In this document: piece after piece, positions 4,879 through 58,059 of the stretch
Layout of the letters: the number at the start of each line of letters is the position of its first letter
How positions within the stretch are numbered: position 1 is the stretch's first letter
Assembly: GCA_951804945.1 (NCBI GenBank)
Contig: OX638149.1
Span: forward strand, 14,694,001 to 14,758,000
Length of the DNA stretch: 64,000 nt
Direction: 5' to 3'
Source: Podarcis cretensis
Taxonomy: Eukaryota
Program-made: the position numbers and the translations under genes
The notes under the pieces: generated by a model
Seen by the model: the letters and a program-made list of their open reading frames with translations, nothing else
Databases searched by the model: none
What the model was told of the DNA's origin: nothing

Positions 4879-5174
4879 CTGGGGAACACGAGAGAAACAC
4901 AAATAAAAACATGAGAAAAGCTTTACTGGAGCAGACCAAAGGCCTGTCTAGTCCAGCACCCTATCCTTACAATTCTTTCCTTAGGCTTTCTAAGCACCAC
5001 TTGTAGTTTATTCACTTGTGTTTGTTTTCTAAGGTTATATGCGAGTGTGAGACTTTCCATGCATGAGCCATCTCATGCTCACGTATAACCTTCAAGGAGA
5101 GGAAAGCAATCCAGCCCAATTTTGCAATAAAATAAAAATAGCATGCGCCTTATTGTGCTATTCTCTTTTTTCCC

Positions 5175-5468
5175 TTCTTTGAAATAATTTTTATTTGGTT
5201 TTACAAGTATAAAACTGTAACAATACAATCATACACATCCACATTTACAGATTCCTCCAAATCTCTTGACTTCCCACCTCCCCTCCATGGGTCCTATTAT
5301 TAAACCTTTTCTACTGCACCTTTCCCAATAATCTGTATTTTGTATAACTCCATTGTCTCCATAGTACTTGCTACATTACAAGCGTTATTGTAAGCCTGCT
5401 AATGTTTTCATTTGCTTCTAGCGGTCTCCAAGATAAATTATGATTTTTTTCCATTCTTTGTTAAGACC
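5175..5468 (-). mobile_element. L1/Tx1-like 3' fragment
   Basis: Minus strand reads a decayed ORF2 end (KEWKKIIIYL...KQMKTLAGLQ*), then a GT-rich 3' UTR ending in AATAAA and an A-rich tail. Confidence 0.55.
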
Positions 5469-5784
5469 AGTGCTATTTTCACACTGCTTTCATACTAAAA
5501 GGAACAAAACAACGCTGGCCTTACAAGAGACTTGGGGGAAAGGCTTTCTTGGGGGGTCGGGGGAAAGAACTAACAGGAAGCAGCTACATGTGGACATTAT
5601 CCGGACACAGCGGAATCCTTTCTGATTGCTTGGAGAAGGAAGTAATTAAATCTGGGGCTGTAACGTCCAACAGTGTAACACCTTTAAGGCACCAACTGAC
5701 CTGGACTATAGGTAGGTGATAAGGCTTTGAAAAGCAATCTGAAAATCAGGTCAGAGGCCACGAGTTTCACATGGGTAGAACAGT

Positions 5785-6128
5785 TACTGAATTGCAACTT
5801 ATTACCAAACTTAAAACCATGGAGAGACCTGGTCTGAACAAAGACATTGGATTCTTATCTCATTATACATGGCAAAGCCATTTTTCACCTTCTCACCCCT
5901 GTAAGAGTCGTTAAGAGTCGTCAACAGGCTCATCACAGCTATCGGCCTATCACCCATTCCCACCACCCTTCTGAGTAATACCCCTCCCCACCTTCTCACT
6001 ATATAGAAAGGTCTGGTGACTTCTGTTTCAGTGTATCTGAAGAAGTGTGCATGCACACGAAAGCTCATACCAAGAACTAACTTAGTTGGTCTTTAAGGTG
6101 CTACTGGAAGGATTTTTTTTATTTTGTT
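5785..6128 (+). mobile_element. Penelope-like element, 3' fragment (GIY-YIG C-terminus plus pseudo-LTR)
   Basis: From 5789 it translates ELQLITKLKTMERPGLNKDIGFLSHYT, resembling the PLE endonuclease C-terminus. The pLTR carries TATATA (6000-6005) and a hammerhead motif. A 14-bp TSD with one mismatch flanks it: ATGGGTAGAACAGT (5771-5784) and ATGGGTAAAACAGT (6129-6142). Confidence 0.85.
6033..6070 (+). ncRNA. Minimal type I hammerhead ribozyme (PLE-associated)
   Basis: GTAT-CTGAAGA-A-GTGTG CATG CACAC-GAAA-G-CTC-ATAC: helix I GTAT/ATAC, CUGANGA and GAAA core boxes, 5-6 bp helix II, very short palindromic helix III (AGCT); predicted cleavage after C6066. Confidence 0.8.
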
Positions 6129-6150
6129 ATGGGTAAAACAGTGCACTTAC

Positions 6151-6310
6151 TTGTAGGGCACATGTTTGGCATCGTTGATTAAGGCCAGAATGACACTGCC
6201 CAAGGCGGAGAGAGACAGGCAGAAGGAGCCCCCTCCATCTCGACTCTTGCTTAGAACCTTCTCACAGCTTCCCAGGTCAATGAGATGTAAACGGCTGCGT
6301 CCGCCTGACA
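6151..6310 (-). CDS. KIF26A: KIF26A exon (160 bp), switch II region; coding frame not in ORF track
   Basis: gcttttcAG|TGTCAGGC ... CCCTACAA|GTAAGT; encodes (M)[52 protein letters not shown](K). Confidence 0.95.
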
Positions 6311-6359
6311 CTGAAAAGCAACAGCAACACTACTTACACAATGCTCGCTGATCCAACCC

Positions 6360-6443
6360 TGGCTGGAATGGCAGATAATCATCTAGTCCAACCCCCCGCA
6401 ATGCAGGAATCTCAGCTGAAGCATCCATGACAGATGGCCATCC
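6360..6443 (-). mobile_element. CR1 3' UTR fragment
   Basis: ATCATCTAGTCCAACCCCCCGCAATGCAGGAATCTCAGCTGAAGCATCCATGACAGATGGCCATCC is the reverse complement of the CR1 tail at about 51485-51550. Confidence 0.7.
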
Positions 6444-6629
6444 GTCATGGAATTAAATGGTGATGGGTAGATGGATGTAAAGCTTCAGTGAACAGGCAAA
6501 ATTAGCTGACCAATGCACCAAATTCTATGGGCAGTCGGTATTTAAGTCACGGCTCCCAAAGAACTCGGCTTACTTTCATACAGCATGAACCAACTTGAAA
6601 AGGCGCAAGGATATGTCAAAGGGAAGAGC

Positions 6630-6726
6630 TTGTTAGCCGCCCTGAGCCCGGCTTCGGCTGGGGAGGGCGGGATATAAATAAAATTATTTATTATTATTAT
6701 TGTTGTTGTTGTTGTTGTTGTTGTTG
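6630..6726 (+). mobile_element. L2 3' terminal fragment with (TTA)n/(TTG)n tail
   Basis: Near-identical to the L2 end at 51230-51284 (GTTAGCCGCCCTGAGCCCGGCTTCGGCTGGGGAGGGCGGGATATAAATAAAAT). Confidence 0.75.
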
Positions 6727-6912
6727 AAAGAAAGGGATAGAACTTCCTTCAAAATCCCAATGGCCAAGCAGATGGGACTGTCTGCAAAGGCGTACAATTG
6801 CCCCAACCCAGCAAAATGAATTCTTGGCTAATATTAACCCGGCTCCACATGGATTCACTCTTCTAAAATAAGTGAAGGCAGTACGAATTAAATGTGAGAC
6901 AGATCAACGTAC

Positions 6913-7096
6913 TTCCGCCTTTTCCTCCTTTCTCCATGCGATACTGATAGATGTGGAGGGTGAAGAGCATGTGCGAATTCCTCCGATCCTCTTCGTTGCA
7001 CTCGGGTTTGCTCGTACTCCTGGCTGCCAGGGCTGCGTCAAGGAAGAAAGCAGCCTTCTCTGCTGTTGGGGCCCTTAATTCGCTTTGATTTTGAAG
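6913..7096 (-). CDS. KIF26A: KIF26A exon (184 bp), switch I region
   Basis: atattccAG|CTTCAAAAT ... GGCGGAA|GTACGT; encodes [61 protein letters not shown]. Confidence 0.95.
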
Positions 7097-7365
7097 CTGG
7101 AATATAAACAAGAAAACGACTAATTAAGACGGGGTAACTGATCCCCCCCTCTCTGAACAGAGCAAGCCTCAAGGGTGCTAACGGAAACAAATATGTACAC
7201 TCTGGGATTAGGGATTAAAAATGGGAAAAAAAGCAATTAAAAAGTATTGTCTTTAAAATTGGTGAGAATTGTTGTCAGATCAAAGGAATTCATAAAAACA
7301 TTTATATAAATAAACCAGGGAACAAGGGTAAACCAGAATTTCAAAACTGCCCTGAGATCACATAC

Positions 7366-43260: not shown

Positions 43261-43416
43261 TAGAATCATAGAACTGTAGAGCTGGAAGGATTCCCGGGGA
43301 TCATCTAGTCCAACCCCTTGCAATGCAGGGAATCCTGCCCACAGCCATCCCTGGTTGGGCTTGAACCACCAACCTTCTGGTTAACAGTCAGATGCACTAG
43401 CCCACGGTGCCACTGG
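43261..43416 (-). mobile_element. tRNA-Asn(GTT)-derived SINE with CR1 tail
   Basis: Minus strand CAGTGGCACCGTGGGCTAGTGCATCTGACTGTTAACCAGAAGGTTGGTGGTTCAAGCCCAACCAGGGATG resembles vertebrate tRNA-Asn (CTGTTAACC anticodon arm, AAGGTTGGTGGTTCGAGCCC T arm), then a CR1 end ...CTCTACAGTTCTATGATTCTA. Confidence 0.75.
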
Positions 43417-54644: not shown

Positions 54645-57600
54645 ATCATAGAATCATAGAGTTGGAAGAGACCACAAGGGCCATCGAGTCCAACCCCCTG
54701 CCAAGCAGGAAACACCATCAGAGCACTCCTGACATATGGTTGTCAAGCCTCTGCTTAAAGACCTCCAAAGAAGGAGACTCCACCACACTCCTTGGCAGCA
54801 AATTCCCCTGTCGAACAGCTCTTACTGTCAGGAAGTTCTTCCTAATGTTTATAATAATAATAATAATAATTTATTATTTGTACCCCGCCCATCTGGCTGG
54901 GTTTCCCCAGCCACTCTGGGCGGCTTCCAACAGAGATGAAAAATACACTAAAATATCACATATTAAAAACTTCCCTGAACAGGGCTGCCTTCAGATGTTT
55001 TCTGAATGTCAGGTAGTTGTCATACAGTGGTTCCGCTCCTTCCTCCTGGGCCGTGTTCAGAAAGTGGTGGTGGGGGATGAGTGTTCAGACCCCTGGGCTC
55101 TCACTTGTGGGGTGCCTCAGGGTTCTGTCCTCTCCCCCATGCTTTTCAACATCTACATGCAGCCGCTGGGGCATTCCACAGGGCATTCCACAGGGCGGGC
55201 GCCACTACCGAGAAGGCCCTCTGCCTGGTTCCCTGCAACTTGGCCTCTCGCAGTGAGGGAACCGCCAGAAGGCCCTCGGAGCTGGACCTCAGTGTCCGGG
55301 CAGACCGATGGGGGAGGAGACGCTCCTTCAGATATACTGGACCGAGGCCATTTAGGGCTTTAAAGGTCAGCACCAACACTTTGAATTGTGCTCGGAAACG
55401 TACTGGGAGCCAATGTAGGTCTTTCAAGACCGGTGTTATATGGTCTCGGCGGCCGCTCCCAGTCACCAGTCTAGCTGCCGCATTCTGGATTAGTTGTAGT
55501 TTCCGGGTCACCTTCAAAGGTAGCCCCACGTAGAGCGCATTGCAGTAGTCCAAGCGGGAGATAACCAGAGCATGTACCACTCTGGCGAGACAGTCTGCAG
55601 GCAGATAGGGTCTCAGCCTACGTACCAGATGGAGCTGGTAAACAGCTGCCCTGGATACAGATTTGACCTGTGCCTCCATGGACAGCTGTGAGTCCAAAAT
55701 GACTCCCAGGCTGCACACCTGGTCCTTCAGGGGCACAGTTACCCCATTCAGGACCAGGGAATCCTCCACACCTGCCCGCCTCCTGTCCCCCAAAAACAGT
55801 ACTTCTGTCTTGTCAGGATTCAACCTCAATCTGTTAGCCGCCATCCATCCTCCAACCGCTTCCAGACACTCACACAGGACCTTTACCGCCTTCACTGGTT
55901 CTGATTTAAAAGAGAGGTAGAGCTGGGTATCATCTGCATACTGATGAACACCCAGCCCAAACCTCCTGATGATCCCTCCCAGCGGCTGCATGTAGATGTT
56001 GAAAAGCATGGGGGAGAGGACAGAACCCTGAGGCACCCCACAAGTGAGAGCCCAGGGGTCTGAACACTCATCCCCCACCACCACTTTCTGAACACGGCCC
56101 AGGAGGAAGGAGCGGAACCACTGTATGACAGTGCCCCCAGCTCCCAGCCCCTCAAGACGGTCCAGAAGGATGTCATGGTCGATGGTATCAAACGCCGCTG
56201 AGAGATCCAGCAGAACTAGGAAACAGCTCTCACCTTTGTCCCTAGCCCGCCGGAGATCATCAACCAGTGCGACCAAGGCAGTTTCAGTCCCATGATGAGG
56301 CCTGAATCCCGACTGGAAGGGATACAAATGGTCCGCTTCTTCCAGGCGTGCCTGGAGTTGTTCAGCAACCACTCGCTCAATCACCTTGCCCAAGAATGGA
56401 AGGTTTGAGACTGGGCGATAATTGGCCATTGTGGCCGCATCTAGAGATGGTTTTTTAAGAAGCGGTTTAATAACCGCCTCTTTCAGCGGGTCTGGGAAGG
56501 CTCCCTCACGGAGGGAAACATTCACCACCCCACGAAGCCCATCGCCCAGTCCTTCCCGGCTAGCTTTTATAAGCCAGGATGGGCAAGGATCCAGGAGACA
56601 GGTGGTTGGCTTCACTCGTCCAAGCAGCCTGTCCACATCCTCGGAGGTAACAGATTGGAATTGATCCCACACAACTTGACCAGACAGGACTCTAGCACTC
56701 TCCCGCCCCGGCCCTGCTCCCACGGTGGAGTCTACTTCTTCCCGAATCTGAGCGATTTTATCTGCAAAAAAATTTGCAAAATCATTGCAGGAGAACATGT
56801 GGCCCGTACTGGGCCCCGATGTTACAGGTGGTTCCGCTAAATTGTGAACCACCTGAAAGAGTCTCCTGCTGCTGTTTTCTGCAGATGCAATAGAGGCGGT
56901 GAAGAAAGTCTTCTTCGCCGTCACTATCGCTACTTGGTAGGCTCGACGTTGAGCTCTAACCTGTGTCCGGTCAGATTCAGAATGGGTTATCCGCCACCGG
57001 CGCTCTAGCCGTCTCAACGATTGTTTCATTGCCCTCAGATCCGTGGAAAACCACGGGGCTCTCCGGGCTCCATGCAATCGGAGAGGGCGCTTCGGAGCCA
57101 AACAGTCAATAGCCCTGGTTAACTCCACATTCCAGCGGGCCACCAGGGAATCGGCTGAAAGGCCATCAACATGGGATAAAGCATCCCCTACCACTCTCTG
57201 GAAACCATTTGGATCCATTAAGTGGCGGGGGCGGACCATCCGAATCGGTCCCACCTCCCTGCAGAGGGGATGGGTCGCAGAGAAGTCCAGTTGCACCAGG
57301 AAGTGGTCTGACCATGGCACTTCTTTCGTTTCACTTTTACTTAGTGTCAGATCACCAACATCCGTAGAGGTAAACACCAGGTCCAAGGCATGTCCGCGGC
57401 TATGGGTTGGGCCAGACTTATTCAGGGACAGCCCCATGGAGGCCATGCTTTCCACGAAGTCCCGAGCGGCCCCTTGTAAGGTCGTGTCGGCATGGATGTT
57501 AAAATCCCCTAGGACGACCAAGCTAGGTGTCTCCAGGAGAACATCCGCCACGACCTGAAGCAGCTCGGGCAGGGAATCCTTGGTGCAGCGGGGAGGTCGG

Positions 57601-58059
57601 TACACCAAAAGGAATCCTGTACTGCCCCTATTGCCCAACTTCCAGAACATGCACTCAGGTGGAATCTTCTTTCTTGTAGTTTGGAACCATTGCTCCGTGT
57701 CCGCTTCTCTGGAGCAGCAGAAAACAACCTTTCTCCCTCCTCTATGTGACATCCTTTTATATATTTGAACATGGCTATCATATCACCCCTTAACCTCCTC
57801 TTCTCCAGGCTAAACATGCCCAGCTCCCTTAGCCGTTGCTCATAAGGCATCGTTTCCAGGCCTTTGACCATTTTGGTTGCCCTCCTCTGGACACCTTCCA
57901 GTTTGTCAGTGTCCTTCTTGAACTGTGGTGCCCAGAACTGGACACAGTACTCCAGGTGAGGTCTGACCAGAGCAGAATACAGTGGCACTATTACTTCCCT
58001 TGATCTAGATGCTATACTCCTATTGATGCAGCCCAGAATTGCATTGGCTTTTTTAAGCT
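54645..58059 (-). mobile_element. CR1 3' fragment split by L2 (parts 54645-54850 and 57657-58059)
   Basis: [44 protein letters not shown]...ERRFHL continues into the left part, which ends in the ATTCTATG-type CR1 tail (ATCATAGAATCATAG on the plus strand). Confidence 0.92.
54851..57656 (-). mobile_element. Young 5'-truncated L2 LINE with open EN-RT frame
   Basis: About 830 uninterrupted codons: APE motifs VYRPP, GDFN, LDL, SDH; RT motifs YRPVS, QSGFR, LDLSAAFD, GVPQGSVLSP, YADD; L2 C-terminal LDYCNAL, QNAAARL, LHWLPV; (TTA)n tail at 54851. Confidence 0.95.

Follow-up and report, generated by a model that had tools for sequence, protein, structure and literature searches.

A minimal hammerhead in a recent Penelope-like insertion, antisense in a KIF26A intron of Podarcis cretensis and most likely an inert passenger

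A minimal type I hammerhead motif occurs in the 3' pseudo-LTR (pLTR) of a recent, 5'-truncated copy of a Penelope-like retroelement, inserted antisense in an intron of KIF26A in Podarcis cretensis. The stretch of DNA analyzed, referred to here as the window, comprises 64,000 nucleotides (positions 14,694,001 to 14,758,000 of contig OX638149.1). Direct observation established the identity of the element, its copy number, its orientation, its target-site duplication, and its absence at this site in two relatives. We consider it highly probable that the hammerhead is an inert passenger here, with no role for KIF26A. The motif is real, of a kind already published (PMC4209133, PMC11167929), and found in an ordinary place.

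Read directly, the boxes of the hammerhead follow each other in the expected order at 6033-6070: GTAT, CTGAAGA, A, GTGTGCATGCACAC, GAAA, GCTC, ATAC. By hammerhead numbering, C3 is 6037, G12 is 6059, A15.1 is 6062, U16.1 is 6065, and C17 is 6066. The core contains C3UGANGA9, G12AAA, and NUH in the right order. Helix I is short and open, helix II is long, with G10.1-C11.1 and one unpaired base after A9, and the palindromic 15.1-16.1 segment (AGCT, 6062-6065) would permit helix III only in a dimer. A relaxed hammerhead pattern matches the window once, compared to 0.01 matches expected from 100 shuffles, so the motif is not a chance occurrence. The boxes and coordinates proposed by an earlier sequence-only reading are thus borne out by the direct read and the shuffle test, as is a TATATA about 30 nt upstream, read at 6000-6005. 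Its description of a lone copy holds within the window, with one match, and fails genome-wide, where the exact hammerhead 34-mer occurs 8,170 times (4,015 + 4,155, with 0 for a reversed control), an expected density of 0.35 per 64 kb. The fit to hammerhead models that the same reading anticipated was not obtained, as Rfam returned no hammerhead family either for the whole window at gathering score or for 5500-6600 at E<=10. Four weak Rfam matches in 5500-6600 (E<=10) fell far under their gathering scores and were dismissed. We attribute the Rfam miss to the minimal form, which lacks helix III, rather than to absence of the motif. A hammerhead on the KIF26A sense strand was considered and rejected, as the reverse complement has no core.

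In predicted folds, helices I and II both form in the 46 nt of 6030-6075 (-7.8 kcal/mol, z -0.14). In the longer segments 6010-6100 and 6030-6131, helix II is kept and helix I is absent. Pairing of two copies through the 14-nt palindrome is predicted at -32.6 kcal/mol, versus 2 x -7.8 for the monomers. Features of the hammerhead, the inserted copy, and the flanking gene are collected in Table 1.

Table 1. Coordinates of the hammerhead, the element that carries it, and the neighboring KIF26A features, in window positions.
Feature	Position	Strand	Basis
Minimal type I hammerhead	6033..6070	+	sequence read and shuffle test; helices I and II in predicted fold of 6030-6075
Helix I, GTAT/ATAC	6033-36 / 6067-70	+	sequence
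Core CTGAAGA	6037-43	+	sequence
Extra unpaired A, just after core A9	6044	+	sequence
Helix II, perfect 14-nt palindrome	6045-58	+	sequence
GAAA box	6059-62	+	sequence
Palindromic AGCT (6062-65) and C6066; predicted cut after C6066 (CUC triplet)	6062..6066	+	sequence; architecture per PMC4209133
5'-truncated Penelope-like retroelement: ORF end, 3' UTR, pLTR, tail-less 3' end	5787..6131	+	family matches
Left 14-nt target-site duplication, one mismatch vs right	5771..5784	+	sequence
Right target-site duplication	6129..6142	+	sequence
Last codons of RT/GIY-YIG ORF, 86 nt	5787..5872	+	translation matches ORF C-terminus of L002, L060, L066
TATA-like box, 30 nt upstream of A6030	6000..6006	+	common to all copies long enough; putative function from 5'-end clusters
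Initiator-like TTCAGT; predicted transcription start zone 6030-6035	6027..6032	+	initiator consensus; 37/114 copies start at 6030-6037
T-rich end, the tail-less one of two family 3' end types	6113..6128	+	family comparison
KIF26A kinesin-motor exon	6151..6310	-	PF00225, E 3e-6 (under Pfam curated cut-off); snake KIF26A tblastn
KIF26A intron with insertion, 1.27 kb	4881..6150	-	tblastn exons; donor GTAAGT at 6150

Against a young copy, the window copy shows 8 substitutions and deletions of 11 and 9 nt. Its private alleles are A6009, T6112, and the two deletions, and the TGA stop codon of other copies reads TGG, so that the ORF stop is lost. By these changes, the copy is decaying. A search of the genome with the DNA of 5700-6140 found 39 other places that match approximately 5787-6131 at 83-94% identity (the best 40 of 1,277 candidates scored). 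In 39 other best copies (best of 173 candidates) the reverse transcriptase (RT) region is 98-99% identical, and the family is therefore young. Sister copies contain a single ORF that encodes RT plus GIY-YIG as the C-terminal domain (L012, L060, L066). One of them, L012, has RVT_1 (E 4e-12) followed by GIY-YIG (E 9e-6) in one ORF, and L060 has a stop-free frame of 875 residues. The first in-frame ATG of the long ORF lies about 70 nt past the cut site. Copy L066 has the arrangement pLTR-ORF-pLTR, with two hammerheads 3,005 bp apart flanking the ORF. The 21 long loci examined also include a shorter tandem, L069, and several loci with an inverted partner. The pLTR partial tandems (L066, L069), the inverted partners, and an optional tail of 30-40 bp, together with the single ORF, are the features of an EN+ Penelope-like element. 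The sister copies with RT and GIY-YIG, and the pLTR tandem, support the proposal of the sequence-only reading that this is a Penelope-like pLTR hammerhead of the minimal type with palindromic helix III. The alternative of a non-LTR retrozyme was rejected, because the window holds a single copy with an ORF remnant instead of non-coding tandem repeats. An ORF start at the ATG inside helix II, as in the anole element PAc, was rejected also: in the main subfamily that frame reaches TAA after 9 codons, and the long frame starts about 70 nt past the cut.

Genome-wide, the 26-mer just downstream of the hammerhead occurs 13,634 times. To the left of the window, at 14 and 22 kb, are two further copies with a hammerhead (G000:C1:14679831-14679853 and 14671591-14671618). 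In the 73 sampled copies that span the motif, core G12 is changed to A in 11, and its CpG partner, C6058, to T in 7. These CpG changes indicate that inserted copies decay, rather than being kept intact. A search for other helix II sequences gave 49 variant matches, 46 of which fall in the main family and differ by one change or a small insertion. The other three belong to a different family, with a compensatory double change from U-A to G-C at the fourth pair of helix II and the core kept. Some pLTR ends are fused directly to other repeats or composite pieces (L069 near 570 on the minus strand, L059 near 967, and L084, L095, and L140). In two unrelated copies, L095 and L140, a SINE-like sequence follows immediately after GGTGCTACTGG, hinting at a preferred insertion point inside the pLTR.

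On the minus strand of the window, a frame of 1,140 residues (3682-263) finds its best matches in squamate KIF26A, at 74-79% identity, and tblastn with snake KIF26A places exons at 6311-6150 and 4880-4716. The squamate matches, the tblastn exons, and the GTAAGT donor agree with the assignment of the motif to a KIF26A intron in the sequence-only reading. The strand of the exons likewise upholds its statement that the motif is antisense to KIF26A, and so not part of the pre-mRNA. The hammerhead is 80 nt from the exon and its donor GT (6150), and the 3' end of the element is 19 nt from the splice donor. Elsewhere in the window, an 878-residue frame with endonuclease and RVT_1 domains (55149-57782, minus strand) represents a LINE insertion in a KIF26A intron, with an apparent second LINE fragment beside it at 57512-58057. 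A weak tRNA match (43353-43413, minus strand, 30.1 bits) is probably the head of a tRNA-derived SINE.

Contigs of four runs, from organisms A-D, were aligned to 5300-6600. For organisms A and B, contigs cross both insertion junctions, where one of these runs may be the source sample and hence not independent. The site is empty in organism C, where a single contig joins 5774 to 6141, and in organism D, where a single contig joins 5779 to 6145. These empty alleles are shorter by 365-366 nt; the element plus one duplication accounts for 358 nt, leaving an excess of 7-8 nt. The insertion is therefore younger than the split of these relatives and, since KIF26A lacks it in two of the four organisms, a conserved role in KIF26A is unlikely. 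No special relation to KIF26A is supported: the window copy belongs to a set of more than 8,000, its sequence is decaying, and neither organism C nor organism D has it here. Conserved intronic host ribozymes, among them HH9/HH10 and CPEB3, are sense to the host RNA and are retained across species at the orthologous position. A ribozyme of this type was rejected because the motif is antisense and organisms C and D lack it at this position. The contigs of all four organisms contain, at very high summed depth, another high-copy repeat fragment, unrelated to the element, which lies immediately upstream of the KIF26A exon (6356-6443).

The 5' ends of inserted copies provide a record of where their templates may have begun. 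The sample took in 99 of the first 100 sites at which the downstream 26-mer occurs (C1, 0-5.55 Mb), along with 15 additional matches at these loci, giving 114 copies, each extended upstream against the window copy. Since the anchor lies 3' of the cut site, this sample is not selected for the hammerhead. Copies L157-L163, chosen by hammerhead pattern, were left out of the count, and L074 and L075 look like duplicates of one insertion. Of these 114 copies, 37 have their 5' end at 6030-6037 (4.6 per base), 11 at 6000-6025 (0.4 per base), 19 inside helix II, mostly as inverted junctions, and just one at the cut site (6065-6069). A divergent partner occurs within 1.5 kb in 69 of the 114, and among the 45 copies without an inverted partner, 21 start at 6026-6037. 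An extra 3' tail is present in 57 and absent in 57. Genome-wide counts were made by adding six bases at either place: across the cut site, 7,252 of 7,487 matches are kept (97%), and upstream of 6033 (6027-6032), 3,632 of 8,762 (41%).

Among matches genome-wide that lack the native T directly ahead of G6033, 1,585 have G there and 846 have A or C. The G share, 65%, compares to about 30% expected from base composition. Reverse transcriptase copying of a cap can leave an extra G, although a literature search listed no report on a G of such origin. Judged by eye, an inverted partner or helix I fold-back can account for approximately 7 of the first 30 loci with extra G, and plain substitution for 2; in the remainder the G has no evident genomic source. 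The TATATA starts exactly 30 nt before A6030, and TTCAGT at 6027-6032 is initiator-like. The clustering of copy 5' ends 30-37 nt downstream makes it plausible that the TATA box noted in the sequence-only reading is a real one. The simplest reading of these junctions is a capped RNA that would start at 6030-6035 and be copied, uncut, to its end. We infer both the start site and the cap from DNA junctions, rather than from CAGE or 5' RACE. Because 5' ends pile up at the TATA/initiator site, often with an extra G, and are almost missing at the cut site, the templates were likely capped, uncleaved RNAs that began at the hammerhead. From the scarcity of cut-site starts it follows only that RNA, once cut, is not integrated, and not that cutting is rare. 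A scan for bacterial promoters found nothing, and that type of model does not apply to RNA polymerase II. Within the literature searched, which has most subscription papers and supplements outside it, we found no published tally of 5' ends at the start site versus the cut site.

Head-to-head mini-copies recur at a constant spacing of 102 nt; one arm begins at 6031-6033, and its counterpart inside helix II or directly behind it (for example, G000:C1: 1697474/1697576, 1741954/1742056, 2236604/2236706, 4028297/4028399, 4998133/4998235, and 1317601/1317703). In L083 and L130, there is a perfect fold-back on the helix II palindrome. Inverted junctions seem to be guided by the hammerhead's own helices. 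In partial tandems of L066 (2434-2478) and L170, the latter with an extra G, and in an RNA joint from 2528 to 2334, the ORF start is fused directly to the predicted site of transcription initiation, which suggests that RT jumped to a second template RNA at its 5' end.

Among the RNA runs listed, none contains the locus (5000-7200). From two studies of organism D, in which the insertion is missing, four raw RNA runs were taken, and 6-12% of each was mapped to the family unit L066. Each run placed 1,171-1,693 reads on L066, of which 66-85% continue into unrelated sequence, as expected from short copies embedded in host transcripts. In two bulk runs, reads on the ORF mostly share one orientation; for a library stranded in the usual way, this would be sense. 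Loose ends at L066 2335-2338, equivalent to window 6031-6034, show the same 5' boundary in the copies of organism D. In none of the four runs do read starts or ends accumulate at the cut site or the predicted start, in libraries poorly suited to reveal either.

For the active element, we propose that a TATA/initiator promoter would start RNA at about 6030-6035, so that the hammerhead would be the first 40 nt or so of the transcript, about 70 nt ahead of the first ORF ATG. Reverse transcription may initiate internally, at the T-rich site or the tail (about +100 and +140), by analogy to PAc. Initiation near the RNA 5' end would run off at the cap and could yield mini-copies of about 100-140 nt with the whole hammerhead, often with an extra G, while initiation at the 3' pLTR would yield longer truncated copies such as that in the window. 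The templates would likely be uncleaved; cutting by the ribozyme is predicted to need dimerization or the protein of the element, and would then probably be slow.

A different model takes up the sequence-only reading, by which plus-strand RNA driven by the pLTR could cleave itself, or act in trans with other copies, and would extend antisense into the KIF26A exon, and assumes in addition a regulatory effect. The TATA box, the initiator-like site, and the hammerhead are indeed intact in the window copy, the exon is a mere 80 nt away, RNA of the family exists in a relative, and predicted pairing of two copies through the palindrome is strong (-32.6 vs 2 x -7.8 kcal/mol). At least 3,632 copies share the same upstream context, however, so chance alone should place an antisense copy in an intron close to an exon. 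Organisms C and D lack the insertion, the window copy is decaying, helix I does not form in the predicted folds of 6010-6100 and 6030-6131, and motifs of this kind did not cleave in vitro as monomers (PMC4209133). Efficient trans cleavage with other copies is less likely given the family-wide lack of cut-site starts and the low activity in vitro (PMC4209133). We regard this regulatory model as very improbable.

The hot spot of 5' ends might instead mark a splice acceptor, or a structural stop for RT at helix I, and not a capped RNA start. Just before helix I, the sequence TTTCAG/T (6026-6032) resembles a splice acceptor, T directly precedes the start in 12 of 12 copies that begin at 6031, and an intron of the Drosophila virilis Penelope ends at helix I (PMC4209133; intron in PMC2377424); these points count against our preferred explanation. 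The junctions share no upstream exon sequence, however, and among the splice joints listed for organism D's four RNA runs, a list that stops short of 11 weaker ones, none leads into the site. The 3' side of the helix would be where an RT, travelling 3' to 5', is expected to stall, and the TATA box is at exactly -30 from A6030. On balance a splice or stall origin is unlikely, though less so than the regulatory model. A further point against our explanation is that antisense templates with self-priming, argued for rotifer elements (PMC3846280), could shape 5' ends differently. The 7-8-nt excess in the empty alleles also counts against it.

Compatible with the explanation we prefer, and concerned with the active element rather than the window copy, is a reading in which the hammerhead often cuts element RNA in vivo, and the cut RNA, once decapped, is lost, so that only uncut RNA is copied. 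Cleavage would then be a dimer-dependent brake on the element. The cut would be placed near +37 of the predicted transcript, ahead of the ORF start; the different family among the variant matches (3 of 49) keeps the core while its helix II differs; and the PAc hammerhead cuts with help from protein (PMC11167929). The four RNA runs, their libraries ill-suited as stated, lack a pile-up at the cut site, none was found for PAc either (PMC11167929), and activity in vitro is low (PMC4209133). We hold such a brake to be possible, at well under even chances. A little more tentative is the fuller picture in which young copies would be a fossil record of element RNA that starts at the hammerhead's first base, with capped, uncut RNA copied to its end and cut RNA never inserted. 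The hammerhead might then act as a switch, triggered by dimer or protein, that removes the cap at +37 and takes the RNA out of the cycle, its palindromic helix II sensing RNA concentration.

The motif resembles the minimal hammerheads found in pLTRs of metazoan Penelope-like elements, which are reported from fish, Xenopus, turtles, and snakes and number thousands of truncated single copies per genome (Cervera and De la Pena 2014, PMC4209133). These do not cleave in vitro as monomers and show low cleavage as dimers. Shared features are a helix I of 4 bp, a long helix II, an unpaired base between 9 and 10.1, G10.1-C11.1, a palindromic 15.2/16.2, the lack of loop III, location in pLTRs, and the thousands of single truncated copies. 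The family here is young and uniform, whereas those described there are highly variable, and its helix II is a perfect 14-nt palindrome. We did not find the present sequence family in the main text of PMC4209133, whose reptile alignments, in supplements, may list it. Like PAc, the Poseidon element from Anolis carolinensis (Frangieh et al. 2024, PMC11167929), it is a lizard element with a pLTR hammerhead, with tailed and tail-less ends and with no RNA-seq ends at the cut site. The work on PAc shows that RT starts at two internal sites, that protein assists cleavage, and that the main substrate is uncut RNA; it finds cleavage dispensable in vitro. Unlike PAc, which belongs to the Penelope/Poseidon clade and whose ORF starts inside the hammerhead, the element here has its first in-frame ATG past the cut and a protein with a CX4CxxC linker.

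That linker, in the L060 protein, fits the CX2-5CxxC that precedes GIY-YIG in Neptune/Nematis-type EN+ Penelope-like elements (Craig et al. 2021, PMC8557442). The family resembles these in its RT, linker, and C-terminal GIY-YIG, and also in its partial tandems, inverted 5'-truncated partner, and 30-40-bp tail, a likeness drawn from linker and architecture and not from an RT tree. Among the matches listed, the closest database proteins are turtle RT proteins without a family name (60-72%), with no named Neptune reference, and a literature search for lizard Neptune elements found nothing relevant. For Penelope pLTRs of the rotifer Adineta vaga, a putative TATA and initiator were already proposed, with antisense templates favored (Arkhipova et al. 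2013, PMC3846280). Both families show a putative TATA plus initiator, inverted pLTRs with palindromic junctions, target-site duplications, and solo pLTRs; unlike here, the available text of that report counts no 5'-end hot spot or extra G. The Penelope of D. virilis is TATA-less (PMC2377424). Non-LTR retrozymes (bioRxiv 10.64898/2026.07.22.740005) also have a type I hammerhead derived from pLTRs of Penelope-like elements, but form non-coding tandem arrays, whereas the window copy is single and retains an ORF end.

For KIF26A, the insertion is very likely of no consequence, being one among thousands of recent insertions. As to the role of Penelope hammerheads, for which processing of precursor RNA has been proposed (PMC4209133), the counts presented here add genome-wide support for inserted copies that derive from uncut RNA starting at the hammerhead. 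The young and simple family of P. cretensis is suited to direct tests of the start site, of cleavage, and of the effect on mobility.
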